A stretch of 20,000 bases of DNA from an uncultured virus (IMG/VR IMGVR_UViG_3300026250_000004) (Duplodnaviria > Heunggongvirae > Uroviricota > Caudoviricetes). The notes below the pieces were generated by a model. That model had not been told where the DNA came from. It saw nothing but the letters and a program-made list of their open reading frames with translations, and did not search any database. The stretch lies in IMG/VR virus record IMGVR_UViG_3300026250_000004, one strand, 5' to 3'. This document shows, piece after piece, positions 2,706 to 20,000 of this stretch (within the stretch, counting starts at the first letter, position 1; every line of letters begins with the position of its first letter). The translations under genes and the position numbers were made by a program.

Positions 2706-3092
2706 TTAGCCAAGTTTTACAATAGCTTTGTGATTGGTTGCATCAACAGCTACAGCACGAACACCAGTAGCGGCAGCGGCCAATGCCCCTTTACCGGCAC
2801 CATCCAATTCAACCCAAGAGCCGTTAGTTACTTCGTTGGCAGCCTGCGCAGCATGTTCAATATCAATTTCGGCATAACCTCCATCCTGAACACCAACAGC
2901 ATCGGTTTCAAATCTGATTAGCACCCCAAAAGGAACGCCTGCATCAGCACCTAAGCTCCATTCTCCAATGCCAGAGATAGTGCCAAGTTTGCCAATATCG
3001 GTTGCGGCAATTCCGTTAGCGGGAACAAGGGTAATTTCGTGATAGTCAATATTCAAAAGTCTCTCTTTAGCTTCTGCATAAGTCATAGCCAT
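2706..3092 (-). CDS. Capsid decoration/cement-like protein
   Basis: 128 aa, Gly/Ala/Val-rich beta protein between scaffold and capsid genes (PFGVLIRFETDAVGVQDGG; VELDGAGKG); RBS GAAAGGAAGTG. Confidence 0.6.
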   Translation of the reverse strand: MAMTYAEAKERLLNIDYHEITLVPANGIAATDIGKLGTISGIGEWSLGADAGVPFGVLIRFETDAVGVQDGGYAEIDIEHAAQAANEVTNGSWVELDGAGKGALAAAATGVRAVAVDATNHKAIVKLG

Positions 3093-8967: not shown

Positions 8968-9044
8968 TGGAGCCGGATGCAGGACTCGAACCCGTCAACT
9001 TACCGCTTACAGGGCGGTTACTCTACCAATTGAGTTAATCCGGC
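8968..9044 (-). tRNA. tRNA-Thr(UGU), atypical (C33, irregular T-stem), encoded CCA
   Basis: Minus strand GCCGGAT TA ACTC AATTGGTA GAGT A ACCGC CCTGTAA GCGGT AAGTTG ACGGG TTCGAGT CCTGC ATCCGGC T CCA folds as a cloverleaf. Confidence 0.85.
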
Positions 9045-11701: not shown

Positions 11702-12343
11702 TTATCCTCCCACAATCGCCTTCAACTGCCTCAAGCTCTCATCCAACTCCTTGTTGACTATGCAGTAATCAGCTATCCCCAAGTTATCAAATTCACCCGA
11801 ACGAAAAGCATGTCTTACCCTATCCGCTATATTGTCCTCACTGTCACCCCTTGCCCTCATTCGCTCTACCGCTAGTTTGACAGGTACATAGACATAGATA
11901 ACTTTAACCTGTTCGCTGCCGTAAAGAGCCTTGAATTGCTCTACCCCGTGCCTGTCCACTATCGCATAAGCAGAACCATTAGAAGATAAGACTCGCTCGA
12001 CCTCGGCTTTAGATGTGCCATAGCTATTATCGTTATAAACAGTTGACTCAATCATAGGTATTGATCCAAACTGTTCTTTAGTTACAAAGTAATAGGTCAG
12101 TCCTTCAACTTCGCCTTTACGCATCGGTCGAGTTGTTGTGCTAATCAACTCTGGTATTCCCAACTCTTTTAGATAGCAACCGAGCGTTGATTTGCCTGCG
12201 CCGGATGGACCCAATAAAAGGTATAATGTTCTGCTTTTAGGCGGTGGATTAATCCTGCGCCCTAATTCTGCCCATGTGTTTGGCACTGTTCCTGCTGTTA
12301 ATTGCGGTTGCGGCAATGTAAATGTAATTTTACACATAATCAC
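11702..12343 (-). CDS. gmk: Guanylate kinase-like nucleotide monophosphate kinase
   Basis: P-loop GPSGAGKST; guanylate kinase signature STTTRPMRKGEVEGLTYYFV; YGT motif. Confidence 0.88.
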   Translation of the reverse strand: MIMCKITFTLPQPQLTAGTVPNTWAELGRRINPPPKSRTLYLLLGPSGAGKSTLGCYLKELGIPELISTTTRPMRKGEVEGLTYYFVTKEQFGSIPMIESTVYNDNSYGTSKAEVERVLSSNGSAYAIVDRHGVEQFKALYGSEQVKVIYVYVPVKLAVERMRARGDSEDNIADRVRHAFRSGEFDNLGIADYCIVNKELDESLRQLKAIVGG

Positions 12344-12684
12344 TCACCCACTTTCGGCACTTCTTCCATCGAATAAAATATCTGCAAGCCAAACTCTTTA
12401 GCCCGTTCCAATTCAATGCAAGCACCCCTTGATTCACCGATAAAGAAAAGTGCATCACATTTCGTGAGCCAAACATCGTCATATTCCATCCAAAATTCCC
12501 ACGGCAGCTCTATTCCCTTTTCCTGTGCGTGAGTATCTAAAAAATGCGATAAATGCGGGGCATATGGATAATATCCCCTATTAATCAATTCAAGTGCAAC
12601 GTCCATAGCCCTCTTGGTATTTTCCAATCTGCCTTGTTCTGTATCTGCCGAATAAGGTCCGGCACAATAGATTAATGGTTTCAT
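12340..12684 (-). CDS. DUF4406/DUF1937-like nucleoside 2-deoxyribosyltransferase-fold protein
   Basis: IYCAGPYS, PYAPH, WLTKCDAL and ESRGACIELERAKEFG motifs. Confidence 0.75.
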   Translation of the reverse strand: MKPLIYCAGPYSADTEQGRLENTKRAMDVALELINRGYYPYAPHLSHFLDTHAQEKGIELPWEFWMEYDDVWLTKCDALFFIGESRGACIELERAKEFGLQIFYSMEEVPKVGE

Positions 12685-12695
12685 TTAGACCCTCC

Positions 12696-13325
12696 TTAAC
12701 CAAATAAACTCATTTGCTCTCCATAAAAATAACCCGGCACGTTTGTACCGGATTGTAAGCTTCCCCATTGTTGCGCCATAGCATCGGCTATACCTTGAAA
12801 TGTTCTTGAGCGTTCCTTCCATCTGTCGGGGCCGGGCGGCGTTTTGTGTATTCTTTGCTCTCTACCCTCAACAATATTGGTTGACTCCAATTTAGGCAGG
12901 TTTTTTAACCACAAACAGGTCGCTTTGGTTTCCCCATGCCCGTATTGCCATGGTTGAACCACCTGCGTTTGTTGTGTCCCGATGATTTTTTTTGCATACT
13001 TGTGCATTATCGGGTTTTCAATAGCTATTCTGGGAATATCGGCATTGTATAGTATCTTAAAAAACTCTGCCCCTTCTCGCATTGCATCCCATCGCCCCTC
13101 TTGCGCACTAAGCCAACGCACTCCACTATTGCAAAGATAAGTGCATGGAGGGTGAGCTATCATTAAATCCCAACCGTCGTCCAATATTTCTAACACATCG
13201 CCTTGAATGTGCCATCTGGGGTCTGCTTCTGTTGGCAAAATATCGCAACTCCAAGCCTCATGCCCCCCCCGCCTAAAAGCATCGCGGACCACGCCGCTAT
13301 ATTCACAAGCAACTAAAACCCTCAT
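12696..13325 (-). CDS. Phage DNA cytosine-5 methyltransferase-like protein (short, variant motif I)
   Basis: VLVACEYSG, WSCD, IAHPPCT (catalytic PC), IENP, Q..QYGH..K.T.LW, RSRTFQGIADAMAQQWG. Start placed at ATG 13325 (track uses 13334). Confidence 0.7.
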   Translation of the reverse strand: MRVLVACEYSGVVRDAFRRGGHEAWSCDILPTEADPRWHIQGDVLEILDDGWDLMIAHPPCTYLCNSGVRWLSAQEGRWDAMREGAEFFKILYNADIPRIAIENPIMHKYAKKIIGTQQTQVVQPWQYGHGETKATCLWLKNLPKLESTNIVEGREQRIHKTPPGPDRWKERSRTFQGIADAMAQQWGSLQSGTNVPGYFYGEQMSLFG

Positions 13326-13350
13326 CACTAGCACCCGCCTTTCAATGCCC

Positions 13351-13425
13351 TGCCTACAAATAACAAAGGGCTTATATCAGGCAGTAGGCATCTGCTTTTC
13401 GGGAGCTACCCTAGATATAAGCCCT
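13351..13425 (-). ncRNA. C4/c4-2-like structured RNA element (copy 1) with downstream complementary target
   Basis: AGGGCTTATATC TAGGGTAGCTCC CGAAAA GCAGATGCCTACTGC CT GATATAAGCCCT three-way junction; loop TGCCTAC is complementary to GTAGGCA at 13351-13357. Confidence 0.6.
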
Positions 13426-13442
13426 GTATTAACTTGCTTAAC

Positions 13443-13643
13443 TTAAAAACCTAACTTCCGTTTAATCCTTTTCCAAAAGGAAACATTCTTCTCGATTATC
13501 ACGACAATCGGCTCTCCTGCCATCACCTTAGCTTCGATGAACTCCTGCAAGTCTGAAAGCAACTGCTCATAGTCTTTCTCTTCTCGCTTTACCGAAAGGG
13601 GAATTATTTTACATCGCTGATTCAATCCATCTGCCTTCTTCAT
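13443..13643 (-). CDS. Hypothetical protein (66 aa)
   Basis: ORF with RBS GGTGGAG, overlapping the end of the GGQ gene. Confidence 0.5.
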   Translation of the reverse strand: MKKADGLNQRCKIIPLSVKREEKDYEQLLSDLQEFIEAKVMAGEPIVVIIEKNVSFWKRIKRKLGF

Positions 13644-13971
13644 CTCGCATCTCCACCTTTAAATTCTCTGGTTGCATAGAACTCTCTACTTCCTGCTTTA
13701 TATCTGCTAATCTGCCCAACCTTTTAGCAACCTCTAGCTTGTACCACTTCTGGAATATCTCTGTTTCGACGCAACGCTTAAAAGCTGTCTGCTGATTATG
13801 CAACCTAGAACGACCTTCTTCGCTTTTGCCAACTGCACCGGATTCAACATGTGTTATACGGCAACAATTTTCAGTTTTGTTTCTCTTTTGGCCTCCCTTG
13901 CCTGTACCACGATAATAGTCAATCCTAAAATCCTTTTTTGTTACCGAAAATAATGGTTGCTTGTTTTCCAT
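13609..13971 (-). CDS. Peptide chain release factor-like GGQ domain protein (ArfB/YaeJ-like peptidyl-tRNA hydrolase domain)
   Basis: DFRIDYYRGTGKGGQKRNKTENCCRITHVESG...GRSRLHNQQTAFKR matches RF domain 3. Confidence 0.85.
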   Translation of the reverse strand: MENKQPLFSVTKKDFRIDYYRGTGKGGQKRNKTENCCRITHVESGAVGKSEEGRSRLHNQQTAFKRCVETEIFQKWYKLEVAKRLGRLADIKQEVESSMQPENLKVEMRDEEGRWIESAM

Positions 13972-13985
13972 AAAATCAACTCCAA

Positions 13986-14010
13986 TAAAAAAAACACTCC
14001 CAAAGAGTGC
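13986..14010 (-). terminator. Intrinsic terminator-like hairpin
   Basis: Minus strand GCACTC-TTTGG-GAGTGT-TTTTTTT. Confidence 0.5.
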
Positions 14011-14075
14011 TAAAATTTTTCTAAAAATATTTTCTGAACCTCAATTCTAAAACATACCCCCACCCATTCGTGGAT

Positions 14076-14423
14076 TTACTTAAATAGCTTGAACATTATC
14101 TTATTAGCCTTATCCATGTTCTTCTGACGATGATATTCCCAGTCTCTACGATACTTTAGAAATGGCTCAACTTTGGTTCTGCTTGTCAACATAACACACA
14201 ACACGCCACATAAATAAAACTTCGCTGCCTTGTTCACACGCTCTCTGCGCCTGTCACTGTTAATGGCTACACAGCTTTCTAGCATGTCTTGAAGGATTAT
14301 GTTAGCTGCACCAATGTTAAGCTCTGCATCTATTATCCTGTCGGACAGTAAAATATCATCTGCTTTTAACATCTCGCGAATTTCATCATGGTAGTTTTCT
14401 CCTAGATAGTTTTTGATGAGCAT
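14076..14423 (-). CDS. Paralog of the head-tail connector protein
   Basis: LLSDRII..AAKFYLCGVLCVMLTSRTKV..RDWEYHRQK aligns with ILPDADI..AVIAQVCALLCTGMAQRVKV..TNWDKKKRE of 1015-1428. Confidence 0.6.
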   Translation of the reverse strand: MLIKNYLGENYHDEIREMLKADDILLSDRIIDAELNIGAANIILQDMLESCVAINSDRRRERVNKAAKFYLCGVLCVMLTSRTKVEPFLKYRRDWEYHRQKNMDKANKIMFKLFK

Positions 14424-14424
14424 T

Positions 14425-14655
14425 TTAAACCTCCATTGAATTTATTAGCTTGGCATATCGCTTATCGGTTAAATAGTCAAGCTCATGCAATATCTCTATC
14501 TGCTCTCTATTTAATCCCTTTATGTGATACCAAAAGAATAAGAAAACAGGGGCATATAATCTTCTGTAGCACCATTGACGATAATACCAGTTTGGAAAGT
14601 TGTATATTGCATCATCTATTGACCTGCCTATAGACCTCCCCACGTCCTCGAACAT
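14425..14655 (-). CDS. Hypothetical protein (76 aa)
   Basis: Strong RBS AAGGAGGTGG; aromatic-rich central segment. Confidence 0.6.
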   Translation of the reverse strand: MFEDVGRSIGRSIDDAIYNFPNWYYRQWCYRRLYAPVFLFFWYHIKGLNREQIEILHELDYLTDKRYAKLINSMEV

Positions 14656-14958
14656 AAAACCACCTCCTTAATAGAGTTTTTGTCGAAAGTCAAAAAACTG
14701 TTGCGAACTGGGAGCGCGCCCTTTGCCGCCGCGCTGACCCCCCTGGCATGTATGGAGTATACCCCCTCCCTCCCCCGCGCTGGCTCTGTCCCTTGCCAAA
14801 AAGGATAGGCTTACCTGCTCGCCGGTCTAATCCTGCCTCTAAAACAAAAACGGTATTATTATCAAATCGCTGAAAAGCCGGTATAATGGGCAGCGCAAAG
14901 AATAGTACCGAAAATAGCTGAAAGCGGTATTAATATTGGAGGTCTGGGCAAGCTAATA

Positions 14959-15378
14959 CTAATCAGCTTGTCGGCTGTCTAATAGTTCTCTGAGTGATGG
15001 GCCTGCATCTATCGTCTGGTTGATGTTTACAGTGGCTGTAGGCACATGTAGCCCGCTCATCTGAAGTATAGTCTGAGCCGCTTGTATATCGCCTGCTATG
15101 GCTCTGGCTGCCACTGACTGCATAGTGGGCATAGCTGCTGATATAGCTGTGACCTTGCAAGCGTCCAGATATGCGGCAACGAAGCGCGGATCCTTGAAAA
15201 GCCGATAGTAGCTATCCCGGCTAATACCTGCCTTTTGGCATATCTGAGAGACGTTGAGCTCCCTTGCTGTTGGCTCTACCAGGACAGCCAGTAGCGCATC
15301 ACCAGCAGGTGTCAAGGTTTCGGCCTTGTCAGTAAGAACCGGAGTGCTAACTAATTTTTCTAATATTTCCTCTTGCAT
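14959..15378 (-). CDS. HTH protein, phBC6A51-like / probable terminase small subunit
   Basis: LNVSQICQKAGISRDSYYRLFKDPRF HTH, then AIAGDIQAAQTILQMSG oligomerisation-type helices typical of TerS-like proteins. Confidence 0.65.
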   Translation of the reverse strand: MQEEILEKLVSTPVLTDKAETLTPAGDALLAVLVEPTARELNVSQICQKAGISRDSYYRLFKDPRFVAAYLDACKVTAISAAMPTMQSVAARAIAGDIQAAQTILQMSGLHVPTATVNINQTIDAGPSLRELLDSRQAD

Positions 15379-15419
15379 AATTATTCACCTACTTGCATAT
15401 TTATTCTACATTATTTTGT

Positions 15420-15520
15420 TCCTTTAGCGCATTAAAGCGTTAAAGCGTTAAAGTTGCTTATCCGGCTTTTATCTATCTTCATCTTACACTATATCCTTTA
15501 GTACACTAAAGCGTTAAAGC
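15420..15520. repeat. Two 27-bp direct repeats with internal palindrome (operator-like)
   Basis: TCCTTTAGCGCATTAAAGCGTTAAAGC (15420-15446) versus TCCTTTAGTACACTAAAGCGTTAAAGC (15494-15520), 3 mismatches. Confidence 0.65.
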
Positions 15521-15564
15521 AAATAGTCTTTTGCTCTGCCAGTTGAATTTTACATAAAGGAAAA

Positions 15565-16551
15565 CTATCTGGTGCAAACACGCTCTAGTAATTCATCTAA
15601 TTCAAACTCGCTTGCATCCTTCAATGTATCCATATATACACTCAAATCCTCAAAAATATGCAATATCGCATCATCTGGATATTTGAGTTCATATTTTTTC
15701 ATAGCAGTAATAATGTCCTGTTCTTCTTGCCCGGTAAATTCTATAGTTTGCTCGAATTTTTCTTTATAGCATCCGATAATGGCGTTAATGTAGCAGAGAT
15801 AGTCTAATCGTTCATTATTCACCTGTGGGTGTTCCGTTTTCTTTTTCTCTTGTTCCTCTTTTGCTATGCGTTCTTTTCGTGCCATTGCAAGTACTTCTTC
15901 TGCATATTTATCGGCATCGGTTATTTTCCCTAAAGGAATAAGTCCGGTTTGTAATTCGGATTCTTCAAAAGAGGATTCTTTTTCTTCTTTGTAACTATAG
16001 GAAACCATAGAGTAACTATTTGAAACTATAGGTAACGTTGTAGTCAAATTGTCTAACTCGATTTGGTCAGATTGACTAAGGTCTGTAGTCAGATTGTCCA
16101 CATCGTTATGGTCAACTTGACTAAATGTCTCTTGCTTATCTTCTGTATTATTCTCCGTATCTGTAGTCAAATTGACTATAGGTATAGTCAAACTGTCCAT
16201 AGTAATTTCTTTTAATCTTTCGTAATCAATCCGATACCATAGCGTCTGGTCGTTCTGGCGGCGGTTGTACTCGTTGGATGTGATTAATATTTTTTGTCCC
16301 CTGAGTTTTTCCAATACTCGTTGGGTCGTTTTTTTGCTCCAAAAAGGAAATTGCCTTGACCAATCTTCAAGACTGTTAAAAGTCCAGTAATGATCGTCAT
16401 AGAAGTTCTTTTCGGCTTTTTCGTTGGCTTTTATCCAGTACTCTATCTGCTGTAACACGATTGCTTCCTGTAGCCCAATCTTACAGGCTATTTCTTCGCT
16501 AAAATACCTTAATATTGGTATTTCGGGATTGTTTCTTTTTTTCTTTGCCAT
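15565..16551 (-). CDS. Phage replication initiator (N-terminal winged HTH)
   Basis: IGLQEAIVLQQIEYW..DDHYWTFNSLEDWSRQFPFWSKKTTQRVLEKL..DQTLWYRIDY N-terminal domain; iteron array in the central linker. Confidence 0.85.
   Translation of the reverse strand: MAKKKRNNPEIPILRYFSEEIACKIGLQEAIVLQQIEYWIKANEKAEKNFYDDHYWTFNSLEDWSRQFPFWSKKTTQRVLEKLRGQKILITSNEYNRRQNDQTLWYRIDYERLKEITMDSLTIPIVNLTTDTENNTEDKQETFSQVDHNDVDNLTTDLSQSDQIELDNLTTTLPIVSNSYSMVSYSYKEEKESSFEESELQTGLIPLGKITDADKYAEEVLAMARKERIAKEEQEKKKTEHPQVNNERLDYLCYINAIIGCYKEKFEQTIEFTGQEEQDIITAMKKYELKYPDDAILHIFEDLSVYMDTLKDASEFELDELLERVCTR
16041..16199. repeat. Six 15-bp palindromic iterons (TRGTCA-N3-TGWCYA), probable replication origin
   Basis: Copies start at 16041, 16064, 16086, 16109, 16164 and 16185. 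Confidence 0.8.
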
Positions 16552-16575
16552 CTCTTTACCTGCCTTTCAAGTAAA

Positions 16576-16654
16576 CAGCCTTAAAATATTTAAACGGGCA
16601 GGCGGCAAGGCTAACCGCTTTTCGGCCCGGATGATCAGTCCAGACCTAGCCCGC
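16576..16654 (-). ncRNA. C4/c4-2-like structured RNA element (copy 2) upstream of the replication initiator
   Basis: GCGGGC TAG GTCTGGA CTGATCA TCCGGGC CGAAAA GCGGT TAGCCT TGCCGC CT GCCCGT; loop TAGCCTT is complementary to AAGGCTG at 16576-16582. Confidence 0.6.
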
Positions 16655-16665
16655 AAAAATGCATA

Positions 16666-16690
16666 TAAAAAGCCGCCCTTTCGAGCGGCT
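16666..16690 (-). terminator. Intrinsic terminator in the initiator leader
   Basis: Minus strand AGCCGCTC-GAAA-GGGCGGCT-TTTTA. Confidence 0.65.
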
Positions 16691-16897
16691 CGCTACCTCT
16701 ATGATTTTTTTCTCTCCTGACAACTCTCTCTAGTATATACTATATATGCATATTTTCTGCTTGTATAGGCGGGAAACGTGCGATAGGCGTGTAAAAAACG
16801 TGCAGTTTTTGATTTTTGACCTGGCAGAGGCGGCGGCTTGCATTTTTTGCTTCTGGTGCGTACAATATACATATATACTTTTTGGAGGTTTTTGAAA

Positions 16898-17095
16898 ATG
16901 GCCATAAAAGATGGACGTTTATTCCTGCGCTTTGACCCGGCGGAGAAGGCGCGGCTGGAAAAGCTGGCTGAAGAATTTGCAAAACTGCGGCCGGAGGGAG
17001 CTTATACCGTGTCAAGTATCTGCCGGGCTGCGATATTTGAGAAAATGGACGAGATGGAAAAGGAGCTCAAAGCCCTGAAAAAGCCCGGAAAATAG
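16898..17095 (+). CDS. Ribbon-helix-helix (CopG/Arc-like) transcriptional regulator, 65 aa
   Basis: RBS GGAGG, ATG 16898; RLFLRF strand, AEKARLEKLAEE helix, TVSSICRAAIFE helix; divergent from the initiator gene. Confidence 0.7.
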   Translation: MAIKDGRLFLRFDPAEKARLEKLAEEFAKLRPEGAYTVSSICRAAIFEKMDEMEKELKALKKPGK

Positions 17096-17125
17096 CAGTT
17101 TTGCTATGCATTGCCGCACCCTGTT

Positions 17126-17155
17126 GGCTGCCTTTTGGTGGCCTTTTTTGTTTTT
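17126..17155 (+). terminator. Intrinsic terminator after the RHH gene
   Basis: GGCTGCC-TTTT-GGTGGCC-TTTTTTGTTTTT. Confidence 0.6.
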
Positions 17156-17254
17156 GCAAGATAAATACCTTAAAAACTTTTCGACAAATTTATACAATGC
17201 CTATATATCGGGCTTTGCGAGCATCCGGAAAATAAAAATAATACCGTTTTAGTG

Positions 17255-17283
17255 TTGACAGCGTGCGCACTAGGGTATATAAT
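17255..17283 (+). promoter_or_regulatory. Consensus sigma-70/sigma-A early promoter
   Basis: TTGACA (17255-17260), 17-bp spacer, TATAAT (17278-17283), with an A/T-rich UP-like tract upstream. Confidence 0.9.
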
Positions 17284-17350
17284 ATAGTCAAGAGGTACAC
17301 AAACAGCCCGGCAGCTCTCAGGGAGCGGGGCAGGAAAGGGAGGATATGGG

Positions 17351-17737
17351 ATGGAAAAGAAATTTATTGGTATTGTTAAGGATGACATGAAAACTCTGGA
17401 TACCCAGTATACCGGCAAATTCGCAACCTATAAGGAAGCCCATGAAGCAGCCGAGAAACTCTGCAAGCGGACCTATGGCGACCGGGGCAGCATTGACGTT
17501 ATCGACATTACCCTGAATTTCGCACCAGCCGGGACCTGGTGGAACGGAGGCCAGGAACAGATTGAAAAAGACGGCAAAACCTACGCCCTGTACGGCTGGA
17601 ACGGTGAAAGCTATACGGACTCTTGGCAGGTAATTGACCGCACCGAATTTGCCGGGAAATATGACATCTGCCCGGTTTATCAGCAGACAGGCGAAGATGA
17701 ATTTGAGATCGTTGACTATGAGATCAGGGAAAGATAA
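17351..17737 (+). CDS. Acidic early protein with WW..GWNGES domain (candidate anti-defence protein)
   Basis: First gene after the promoter, RBS GGGAGG; C-terminal ~70 aa homologous to the C-terminus of 19003-19797. Confidence 0.75.
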   Translation: MEKKFIGIVKDDMKTLDTQYTGKFATYKEAHEAAEKLCKRTYGDRGSIDVIDITLNFAPAGTWWNGGQEQIEKDGKTYALYGWNGESYTDSWQVIDRTEFAGKYDICPVYQQTGEDEFEIVDYEIRER

Positions 17738-17738
17738 T

Positions 17739-17794
17739 CGCAGAGTGACGGGCCATCCGGCCCGGTAATGCGGCAAGCCGGTCACAAGCCCGGC
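17739..17794 (+). ncRNA. Twister self-cleaving ribozyme, circularly permuted (P5-type topology)
   Basis: CGCA GA GUGA CGGGCC-AUCC-GGCCCG G UAA UGCG GC AA GCCGG UCAC AA GC CCGGC: P1, P2, P4, pseudoknots T1 and T2, the conserved UAA and the catalytic GA are all present. Confidence 0.88.
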
Positions 17795-17823
17795 TAAAGC
17801 CCAAAATGAAAGGGGATAGAAGC

Positions 17824-18045
17824 ATGACTCACGAACAGATGATAGAAAAAGCATGGAGATTTATTTATGACTTACAGATCACCGACGAAAAAGAAAAACT
17901 CACAGATGAAGGTTATTTGGTGGAAAACGTTTATCAAGTTCGCGATGCTTACTACGCTGATTTGGAAAGCGGCCACGACTTTGACGGGGAAGATCTGGAA
18001 GGCTTTTTCGCCCGGCACGGCATCAAAGAGATCTGCGAGAGATAA
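17824..18045 (+). CDS. Small acidic hypothetical protein (73 aa)
   Basis: RBS AAAGGGG, ATG 17824; Asp/Glu-rich. Confidence 0.7.
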   Translation: MTHEQMIEKAWRFIYDLQITDEKEKLTDEGYLVENVYQVRDAYYADLESGHDFDGEDLEGFFARHGIKEICER

Positions 18046-18229
18046 TTTCCCGCCTTTCCTCAGCCCGCCGCATACCTGGCGGGTTGAGATAAGGGCAGGA
18101 AGCCCTTAGGTGCGCCGCTAGCCCTTACAGTTAGGACCGGCACCAGCACAAGCCGCCGCATAGTACCGTCTATGCACGCCGGGGCGGGATAAAATACCGG
18201 CTTATTATCAAATCTCAGGAGGTACGAAA

Positions 18230-18757
18230 ATGAAAATCACCAACGAGCAGCTAATCCAAATTGCCGCAGTTGACGCAGGCCTCGACCCGTTCGGCGAATA
18301 CCTAACCCGCGACGGGTGGAAGGTAAAAGGTTATAAGGTTCTCAGGGGCGAAAAGCCGGCCCTAGTGCTGGACCTCTGGTGTCCGAGAATCCGCAAATCC
18401 TCAGTAGCGAGCGAAAATGCGGAACCTCAGCAGGGAGAAGAAAAGCCCGGAATGTTCTTCCACTTTAAGACCTGTCACTTGTTCGGCAGAGAGCAGACAA
18501 ACGCACTAGAAAGGGAACGTCTTGCCCAACAAACCGCTGCGCTCCGTATCTATCACGCTTATCACCAGCACAATCCCGAAACCGGATATTTAGAAATTGT
18601 AAAGGGTGCGCCAGAAGTAGCTAAAGTAGCGGCTGAATGGATTAAAACTAGTAAATTAGGCAGTTATATATTCCCGATTGATTTTGTCCAGGCTGAAAAA
18701 GATTTAAAAGAGCAACCGGCAATCAACCAAGGCGCATTGTTTGAAATGGCGATGTAA
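18230..18757 (+). CDS. ArdC-like ssDNA-binding/anti-restriction-related protein
   Basis: YLTRDGWKVKGYKVLRGEKP..LW..FHFKTCHLFGREQT resembles the T..QW...G..V.KGEK...VF...QT core of the ArdC N-terminal domain; RBS AGGAGGT. Confidence 0.55.
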   Translation: MKITNEQLIQIAAVDAGLDPFGEYLTRDGWKVKGYKVLRGEKPALVLDLWCPRIRKSSVASENAEPQQGEEKPGMFFHFKTCHLFGREQTNALERERLAQQTAALRIYHAYHQHNPETGYLEIVKGAPEVAKVAAEWIKTSKLGSYIFPIDFVQAEKDLKEQPAINQGALFEMAM

Positions 18758-18772
18758 GGAGGGGGAAAGAGA

Positions 18773-18904
18773 ATGAAGGAAATTAAAACCTTTTGCAAAA
18801 AATGCCAGTGTTTAGGGATTGATTGCACGGGGATATCTGTTTCAACCGGATTTACGGGATGTATTTATTTTAACAAAACGGAAAAGGCTCAGCCTGCCAG
18901 CTAA
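18773..18904 (+). CDS. Small Cys-rich protein (43 aa)
   Basis: Below the track threshold; RBS AAGGAGGGGG; MKEIKTFCKKCQCLGIDCTGISVSTGFTGCIYFNKTEKAQPAS. Confidence 0.6.
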   Translation: MKEIKTFCKKCQCLGIDCTGISVSTGFTGCIYFNKTEKAQPAS

Positions 18905-19002
18905 GCCAATCCCTCAGAACCACAAGCCGGGGCGAGTGATCCATCACAAGCTCATTTTACCCCGGCTCAGTAAAAAAATCAAATTTGAAAGGGGTAATTG
19001 GA

Positions 19003-19797
19003 ATGGCATATTTTAGCAAAGAAGCATACGAAGGTAAAGAAAGATGGGCGAGAAACCGCATGAGAGAAAATAGTGAGGTTCCAACTTTGTCACCGGAACA
19101 GCATGAGACTTTAGCTTGGTTGTGTACGATCAGGCACGAAATGCATTGCAGTCCAGACAGTTTCTGGGTTGGTGAGTCGGGAGAATACTCTGAATACTGG
19201 GATTATATTGGAAACTCATATGAGGACTCTAAAATTAACGAACAATTAAACGAAGTAGGTTTAAAATCCATACCGTTAATAACTGATACCGAACATATAA
19301 TGGCAGACTATGAAGTTTTCGAGGAATGGGGAGTCGAAAACTTACAAGCATACTATGGACTGCCTGAAGATTATACTGACGAAGACATAGACGAAGCAGC
19401 AGAAAAAGCCAAAGAAGTATTATATGAATTATTGGAACAGACTGACGAAATCATCAGAAAATATCTGGCTGAAATTGATTTAGAATTCGGGACAAATTAT
19501 TGCCCTGGTGGGATGGAGGAGTATGTCTCTGTGCCTGATAGCAGTCCATTTTTCCGGGTTGTTGGTAAATGGTGGGAAGATAAGACCGTTGAGATTATCG
19601 AAAAAGACGGTATCTATTACGGACTAAAGGGTTGGAATGGCGAGTCCTTCGCTGACTCGTTCGTGTTTTATGTAGACGACTATACTCAGGAAACTGAGAT
19701 AGAAGAAGGATATATAATCACTCCTGAATATGATGATGACAATAAATTAATGGATTATATCATCAGGGATGACGAGGTAGAGGACGAGGAGGACTAA
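19003..19797 (+). CDS. acrVA1: AcrVA1-like anti-CRISPR protein fused to a C-terminal acidic WW..GWNGES domain
   Basis: FSKEAYEGKERWARNRMRENSEVPTLSPEQHETLAWLCTIRHEMH and IRKYLAEIDLEFGTNYCPGG match my recollection of AcrVA1 (MSKAMYEAKERYAKKKMQEN..TLTDEQHDALAQLCAFRHKFH ... IEKYLRRIDEEHGTQYCPTG). Start placed at ATG 19003 (RBS AAAGGGGT). Confidence 0.8.
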   Translation: MAYFSKEAYEGKERWARNRMRENSEVPTLSPEQHETLAWLCTIRHEMHCSPDSFWVGESGEYSEYWDYIGNSYEDSKINEQLNEVGLKSIPLITDTEHIMADYEVFEEWGVENLQAYYGLPEDYTDEDIDEAAEKAKEVLYELLEQTDEIIRKYLAEIDLEFGTNYCPGGMEEYVSVPDSSPFFRVVGKWWEDKTVEIIEKDGIYYGLKGWNGESFADSFVFYVDDYTQETEIEEGYIITPEYDDDNKLMDYIIRDDEVEDEED

Positions 19798-19924
19798 AAT
19801 ACCAAACCGCCCCCGGTGGGCTATAGCCCGGTATCTACAAGAGTAGAAATTAAAATCCGGAGGCGGTAAATAAATTGTATCAAGTATATTTAATATTGTC
19901 AATCACTCAGAAGGAAGGGAAACT

Positions 19925-20000
19925 ATGCAAAACAAAGCAGATATAAAGCTAGACTATGCCACAAATGAGGTTTTTGTTTTAGACAAAAAAGGCAAAGAGG
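19925..20000 (+). CDS. Start of next early gene (partial)
   Basis: RBS AGGAAGGGA then ATG 19925, open to the window end (MQNKADIKLDYATNEVFVLDKKGKE). Confidence 0.55.
   Translation, partial: MQNKADIKLDYATNEVFVLDKKGKE

Follow-up and report, generated by a model that had tools for sequence, protein, structure and literature searches.

What does a self-cleaving ribozyme do inside a phage operon that also carries an anti-CRISPR gene? The question is raised by a 20,000-nucleotide stretch of DNA from an uncultured member of the Caudoviricetes (IMG/VR IMGVR_UViG_3300026250_000004), hereafter called the window, in which a first-pass annotation made from the letters alone had marked a complete twister ribozyme within an anti-defence operon and proposed that its cleavage tunes anti-CRISPR (Acr) expression. 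The role of most self-cleaving ribozymes of bacteria and phages is an open question according to the available part of PMC6765202, and this locus would make a clean test, since a textbook twister and an Acr homologue that can be assayed with Cas12a lie on the same predicted operon. Our literature search returned no paper that describes a twister within an anti-CRISPR operon; the gene lists of Roth 2014 and Weinberg 2015 may already record cases. Our preferred reading, to which we assign a probability of about 0.7, is that the twister serves as a portable gene-boundary processing site in an anti-defence operon with a strong promoter, cutting constitutively, and is not a dedicated acr switch.

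A type-P5 twister directly follows gene 1

Scanning the whole window against Rfam with cmscan identified positions 17739-17793 (+) as Twister-P5 (RF02684) over model positions 1-58 of 58, with a score of 67.4 bits (gathering score 37.6, E 2.3e-12). The full-length match bears out the claim of a complete twister; the assignment to type P5, with the predicted cut at U17766/A17767, is also supported, and the coordinates given for the stems, GA, UAA, T2 and the stop codon were all correct when checked on the sequence. The twister class is said to go back to Roth et al. 2014. The elements are as follows:

17735-37, + strand: TAA stop codon of gene 1, ending 1 nt before the ribozyme
17739..17794, + strand: type-P5 twister (P2, L1, P1 hairpin, UAA, T2, P4, T1), from the full RF02684 model and the stems
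17739-42/17769-72, + strand: P2 (sequence check)
17743-44 and 17766-68, + strand: GA and UAA (sequence check)
17745-47/17783-85, + strand: T1 pseudoknot, three Watson-Crick pairs, plus a non-canonical A-A pair (reported for twisters in the available part of PMC5408937)
17749-54/17759-64, + strand: P1 (sequence check)
U17766/A17767, + strand: predicted scissile bond, within the twister
17773-74/17788-89, + strand: T2 pseudoknot (sequence check)
17777-81/17790-94, + strand: P4 (sequence check)

The termini lie at the P5 position, with the RNA beginning in the 3' strand of P2 and finishing at P4, as placed by Rfam. The T1 and T2 strands are complementary in the window, and the Rfam consensus is matched at the conserved nucleotides of L1 and L4, among them the U-A site and the G that follows P2. 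We take G17743 to be the general base, by our own mapping onto a numbering listed in PMC5408937. A degenerate pattern for the 3' half of the twister occurs once in the window and in none of 200 dinucleotide shuffles, and Rfam placed no second ribozyme in 16500-20000, even at E<=10. In fold predictions without pseudoknots, all three stems of the isolated twister (P1, P2 and P4) pair with probabilities of 0.94-1.0; from promoter to gene 2, P1 and P4 stay at or above 0.97 and P2 drops to about 0.62-0.66, and across the long contexts P2 ranges over 0.59-0.72. Because P2 is predicted to be only about 0.6-0.7 formed in the long transcript, cleavage may be partial or context-dependent. By sequence and fold potential, 17739-17793 is confirmed as a genuine type-P5 twister.

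The first-pass annotation had found no clear P5 stem. We looked for one and rejected it, with pairing of at most 3 bp in the window and homologue flanks that pair no better than controls. The P5 stem is described as optional in type-P5 twisters (PMC5408937, available part), and the Rfam Twister-P5 model itself stops at P4.

Many homologues share the stop-twister-ribosome site layout

To place this copy among its relatives we used the window and loci L017-L138, in which at least 93 pattern matches gave 55 dereplicated P5 twisters; from the 93, we excluded five in which no P5-type 5' half could be recognised and collapsed 33 on the basis of flank identity. Counts given for these homologues hold among the matches listed. 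The three-pair T1 can form in 55/55, in nine sequence types, its outer G-C pair being fixed by the search filters and hence not independent. The first-pass annotation had drawn T1 with four pairs (GUGA/UCAC); its three pairs are upheld, and the fourth, A17748-U17782, is impossible in 11/55, the U of this pair being fixed by the search pattern. Duplexes between the two flanks have a mean energy of -3.6 kcal/mol in the 55 homologues, compared to -3.4 for mismatched flank pairs, and twisters of this type normally lack a P5 stem.

Just over half of the homologues (28/55, the window included) begin 0-1 nt past a stop triplet, compared to 0-6 of the 55 at each of 28 other offsets examined as a control, and a Shine-Dalgarno-like run lies within 35 nt in 45/55. 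The succession of stop codon, twister and ribosome site is thus the rule for P5 twisters, a generic layout. Furthermore, in nine related loci one twister is retained and the genes on either side of it have been swapped.

Several further features were seen in the set. A second CGCA, the sequence of the P2 strand, lies no more than 30 nt downstream of P4 in 28 of the 55 twisters listed (dinucleotide shuffles, mean 5.9 and maximum 14; before other starts, 71/363), and after the predicted cleavage it could re-pair with the freed 5' end. The window has no such second CGCA, only a 4-bp GCAU overlapping the start of gene 2. Twisters also occur in clusters by Rfam, with six in 5.5 kb in L021, five in L069 and three each in L025 and L001. 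A natural twister at L052:2976-3028, on the same contig as L002, has an A replacing the conserved G after P2 and is possibly inactive.

The twister lies in an anti-defence operon of a tailed phage

By PHROG, the window is part of a tailed phage with genes for a major head protein, a portal and the terminase large subunit. The best matches of its DnaD-like replication initiator are from Bacillus, Listeria and Staphylococcus phages (less than 50% identity over 28-48% of the protein), and these weak matches suggest that the host is probably one of the Firmicutes. The structural and replication genes are oriented leftward; a rightward run of small genes, most of them acidic, follows the promoter at 17255. 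In a near-identical sister element, L178, the run extends past DUF3560 and DarA_C genes and reaches a tyrosine integrase, which makes a temperate phage probable. The leftward part of the window also holds two int-alpA RNA motifs (RF02996) at 16579-16656 (-) and 13353-13421 (-), with 41.5 and 40.4 bits against a cut-off of 35.8, one of them ahead of the replication-initiator gene; a phage tRNA gene at 8971-9044 (-), by Rfam; and, both below the NCBIfam cut-off, a guanylate-kinase-like gene at 11702-12343 (-) and a stand-alone release-factor-like gene with a peptidyl-tRNA hydrolase domain at 13609-13971 (-). The rightward run reads:

16898..17095, + strand: small 65-aa gene upstream of the promoter, near-identical in L178; PHROG match to an Arc-like repressor at E 0.098 only
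17126-17143, + strand: terminator-like hairpin after the 65-aa gene (terminator scan)
17255..17283, + strand: consensus sigma-70/sigma-A-type promoter, TTGACA-17-TATAAT, 12/12 match, identical in L178
17305..17331, + strand: leader hairpin common to related phages, 87-95% identity in G002 and G003; fold z -0.5, weak alone
17351..17737, + strand: gene 1, 128 aa, N-terminal module plus orphan all-beta GWNGE domain (aa 48-126); no family
17809..17816, + strand: Shine-Dalgarno-like run of purines ahead of gene 2; begins 42 nt past the predicted cut
17824..18045, + strand: gene 2, 73 aa, acidic; no Pfam or PHROG match, no family
18046..18229, + strand: 184-nt structured spacer, opening with a long hairpin at about 18049-18101 (hairpin z -6.0)
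18230..18757, + strand: gene 3, 175 aa, N-terminal ArdC-N-like (anti-restriction-associated) domain (Pfam, PHROG, Atlas)
18773..18904, + strand: gene 4, 43 aa, Cys-rich; no Pfam or PHROG match, no family
19003..19797, + strand: gene 5, 264 aa, AcrVA1-like domain (aa 5-171) plus C-terminal GWNGE domain (phmmer, profile, Foldseek)

The 65-aa gene has no sequence match in the PDB and is possibly a ribbon-helix-helix regulator. An acr-aca operon would combine a strong promoter with an adjacent, autoregulating DNA-binding (Aca-like) gene; here the promoter matches 12/12, and the best that the 65-aa gene offers is the Arc-like match at E 0.098. For gene 3 the evidence is weak but concordant (Pfam ArdcN at E 0.0048, below cut-off; PHROG anti-restriction at E 1.8e-4; an Atlas feature score of 0.92 and a structure match to ArdcN), and it points to an ArdC-N-like protein. 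Because gene 5 is an AcrVA1 homologue and gene 3 is ArdC-N-like, the operon is by homology an anti-defence operon, as had been proposed, and it is headed by a perfect promoter. Gene order suggests co-transcription from gene 1 through to the acr gene. Neither the operon nor the AcrVA1 domain had a match among GenBank phages and plasmids, and the nearest virus record (G001, a 32%-complete fragment) had no match to 14000-20000.

Gene 5 is missed by Pfam, PHROG and NCBIfam. Nonetheless, it matches PDB 6nmd_B at E 1.5e-22 by phmmer and the AcrVA1 family profile at E 5.7e-50, and its model (pLDDT 93) matches 6nmc_B by Foldseek at E 2.2e-5 with a TM score of 0.72. Residues R44, H45 and H48, which we take to be the catalytic residues of AcrVA1, align with the same AcrVA1 residues and are invariant in 75 aligned relatives. 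At the Cas12a-binding residues D95/S96, the D aligns in gene 5 and the S, beside a two-residue gap, is not kept. In the parts of the papers available, AcrVA1 is reported to cleave crRNA in Cas12a (PMC7556299, PMC13131331) and its helix alpha2 to carry the RNase activity (PMC7556299). By sequence and structure model, gene 5 is an AcrVA1 homologue fused to an orphan GWNGE domain. The whole protein has 371 relatives at E<=0.001 among 50%-identity representatives, and nearly all of the best 150 of the 371 match the AcrVA1 part.

Two further observations concern gene 5 and its surroundings. AcrVA1-like sequences also occur within the very long proteins P0038, P0059 and P0168. A 47-nt repeat, 96% identical, lies at 18953-18998 of the window and at about 2764-2809 (-) of L178, where it flanks the acr gene and two small genes; a contig from RNA library X3 runs from the repeat into the gene lying behind the second copy, and represents either that second copy itself or a strain that has lost the acr cassette between the repeats.

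The GWNGE domain of gene 1 recurs at the C-terminus of gene 5 (E 4e-11), and is found in gene 1, in gene 5, alone, and fused to gene-2 relatives, two of which (P0003 and P0006) carry it. The sharing between genes 1 and 5 and the fusions to gene-2 relatives indicate that, at the level of sequence, genes 1, 2 and 5 are shuffled modules. Gene 1 itself has 26 relatives at E<=0.001, itself included, and no Pfam, PHROG or NCBIfam match; we considered and rejected its assignment to a known Acr, as it matched no family, PDB sequence or Atlas entry. The domain model (pLDDT 84) matched nothing in the PDB at E<=0.001 by Foldseek, which does not establish a new fold; a wide structure search gave at best a Z of 5.4 (rmsd 3.1, 64 aligned), and one uncharacterised viral protein matched the model at E 1.8e-3. 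We regard the GWNGE domain as a candidate anti-defence module. Seven loci encoding it contained no ribozyme.

The twister is not tied to the acr gene

The first-pass annotation had the cut specifically tuning anti-CRISPR output, with the new 5'-OH end shielding the acr-bearing message from decay, and an AcrVA1 homologue does lie within this operon. However, the distance from the ribozyme to the downstream acr gene is 1.2 kb, with three ORFs and two further long hairpins in between. L178 agrees with the window in the upstream gene and the promoter and is 99.6% identical to it over the region of genes 4 and 5, and so retains the acr gene; in place of gene 1, twister and gene 2 it has other ORFs, and Rfam found no ribozyme in it. 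We also scanned 39 of 63 profile-positive AcrVA1-like loci with Rfam (33 of them distinct, with 1.3 kb or more of upstream sequence in 26 of the 33) and found a ribozyme in none, compared to detection of the twister in 18/18 control loci. None of the twister loci that we fetched contained an AcrVA1-like gene.

The co-occurrence survey suggested by the first-pass annotation came back empty for AcrVA1 in these loci, and it did turn up a different Acr family. Among the 142 ORFs flanking twisters in 38 loci, 19 had a Pfam family at E<=1e-5, and one was a Pfam Acr family, AcrIC5, in L031; this count is a lower bound, since Pfam also overlooks the AcrVA1 homologue of the window itself. In L031 and its close relative L091 (2775-3028 in both), the AcrIC5-family gene ends directly before a Twister-P5, and twisters in anti-defence operons do recur. 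An HTH gene lies further downstream of the L091 twister, and likewise in several relatives. From the sister element without a ribozyme, the 0/39 loci, the 1.2-kb distance and the generic layout, we conclude that ribozyme and acr gene are not tied together.

In B. subtilis, RNase J1 is reported to degrade the 5'-OH product of the glmS ribozyme, the product is trimmed by 2 nt to a 5'-monophosphate, and a blocked 5' end or a strong SD stabilises Bacillus messages (PMC3997798, PMC11780869, available parts). Because RNase J1 degrades the glmS product, a 5'-OH alone is doubtful as a shield in Firmicutes, by analogy; if the message is protected, the P4 hairpin and the ribosome site are the likelier cause. 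On the other side, the 5' end of the 3' product of type-P1 twisters is reported to be buried (PMC8782182, available part). The AcrIC5 cases also speak for specific tuning of the acr gene, to which we nonetheless assign a low probability.

The boundaries of this cassette operon differ among relatives. G002, which is 97% complete, has the leader and the 184-nt spacer in common with the window; Rfam found no Twister-P5 in it (a positive control was detected), and it has no AcrVA1 match. Its operon contains two twister-sister ribozymes (65.1 and 37.8 bits, cut-off 34), one of which begins at a stop codon. In G003, a 23%-complete fragment, a gene-1 homologue is followed by a stem-loop and a U-run, read from the sequence, and Rfam found no twister. 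The 184-nt spacer is conserved in the window (18046-18229), L178:4929-5104 (-) and L205:1376-1553 (-), and stands ahead of different genes in the three related phages; L178 and L205 show compensatory changes, with 7/47 of the predicted pairs altered on both sides, and no Rfam family matches its + strand. The hairpin at about 18049-18101 is a candidate RNase III-type processing site, and the spacer may otherwise be an undescribed structured RNA. Early phage transcripts of T7 and SP82 are processed by RNase III. L178 has further long hairpins of this kind in other spacers.

Nature thus offers a swap series in these relatives, where twister-sisters or a terminator-like hairpin occur, or the ribozyme is missing altogether. 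A bolder reading of the series is that the cassette boundaries are interchangeable RNA modules (twister, twister-sister, long hairpins, terminators), and that the cut is needed to reach or to time the downstream anti-defence genes, including an AcrVA1 fused to a possible second inhibitor. We consider this rather unlikely; if true, it would give a phage twister a concrete job, ribozyme-dependent anti-CRISPR expression. The missing twister in L178, G002 and G003, with the twister-bearing cassette found in one copy only, also fits a neutral passenger, brought in by the gene 1/gene 2 cassette and either inactive or inconsequential here. However, the conserved core agrees with the Rfam consensus and the flush placement of the ribozyme, from stop codon to ribosome site, recurs in many unrelated phages, which makes such a passenger very unlikely.

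RNA contigs over the locus

We aligned assembled contigs from four bioreactor metatranscriptome runs (X1-X4; 2017, possibly one campaign) to positions 12001-20000. Among the pieces listed, those of X3 cover 17300-17653 and 17789-18050, on both flanks of the ribozyme, one of X4 covers 17785-18031 and one of X1 covers 17853-18928; bin depths indicated no further contig over the cut site in X1, X3 and X4. The contigs that start at 17785 and 17789 do so 18-22 nt downstream of the predicted cut. Further starts, at 18099, 18102 and 18104 (X3, X2 and X4), lie just past the long hairpin of the spacer, which X1 bridges. Assembled contigs cannot reveal RNA ends or prove transcription, and these breaks are at most a weak hint of cleavage, as reverse-transcription stops or assembly breaks at strong structure explain them equally well. 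Positions 19000-20000 are not covered by any contig, and the runs are silent on co-transcription of the acr gene.

A portable processing site as the proposed role

According to our preferred reading, in which the twister is a portable processing site at a gene boundary, the transcribed RNA would cut itself at U17766/A17767 by established twister chemistry, with neither protein nor ligand. Twister cleavage is reported to leave a 2',3'-cyclic phosphate and a 5'-OH (PMC5408937, PMC6765202, available parts). In the P5 permutation the predicted folds would leave P1 on the upstream product and P4 on the downstream product. The gene 1 mRNA would then extend 29 nt beyond the stop codon and finish with the P1 hairpin and a 2',3'-cyclic phosphate, gaining a terminator-like 3' end as RNA polymerase continues. 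The downstream product would begin 5'-OH-AAUGCG, followed by the P4 hairpin after 10 nt and the ribosome site after 42 nt. Gene 1 would decay and be translated independently of the remaining operon, and the ribozyme would act as generic punctuation of a cassette operon in which genes are frequently swapped. The predicted accessibility of the gene-2 ribosome site is 0.67 vs 0.68, unchanged by the cut, and therefore a translational switch is not indicated.

The cut could either stabilise or destabilise each product. One possibility is that it is an entry site for decay by RNase J, similar to glmS in B. subtilis (PMC3997798, PMC11780869, available parts), and acts as a timer or attenuator, leaving gene 1 in excess and the downstream anti-defence genes brief. 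The terminator-like hairpin of G003 at the same boundary would also lower downstream output. However, near its 5' end the downstream product would have the P4 hairpin and a strong SD, and elements of this sort stabilise Bacillus messages (PMC3997798, available part). In addition, the X3 and X4 contigs cover gene 2 right behind the ribozyme, and we judge a decay entry to have a low probability. A constitutive processing site remains our preferred role, and it has precedents. In the available part of PMC3088659, prophage hammerheads are reported to lie on either side of single genes, ardA among them, or of short gene blocks, and to cleave in vitro and in E. coli. Processing of polycistrons near phage genes is a suggested role of bacterial hammerheads and twisters (PMC6765202), and similar contexts are described for such ribozymes, with function not known, in PMC5052635 and PMC8782182, all as far as the available parts go. 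The ribozyme class and its setting are already known; the AcrVA1 fusion and the size of its family are a useful by-product.

Comparison with known systems

Compared to the RF02684 twisters of Rfam, the window copy is alike in its full-length match, P1, P2 and P4, T1 and T2, the U-A site and termini at the P5 position; we see no structural difference, and its cleavage is predicted. The prophage hammerheads (Perreault et al. 2011, PMC3088659, available part) are likewise self-cleaving RNAs at gene boundaries of phage polycistrons with changing neighbours, with an anti-defence gene and an integrase nearby and proposed gene-sized messages. Here, in contrast, the ribozyme is a twister in single copy, and the Acr homologue lies three genes downstream and does not directly flank it. 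The glmS ribozyme of Bacillus subtilis (PMC3997798, PMC11780869, available parts) also cuts within an mRNA and gives a downstream product with a 5'-OH. However, glmS is ligand-gated, sits in a 5' UTR and is destabilising, whereas the window twister lies between genes and has no evident ligand domain. Finally, gene 5 resembles AcrVA1 of Moraxella bovoculi (6NMC/6NMD) in sequence and fold over aa 5-171 and retains the R-H-x-x-H of the second helix; it differs in its 36% identity in the fold alignment, its C-terminal GWNGE fusion and its probable origin in a Firmicutes phage, and it is a putative inhibitor by homology.
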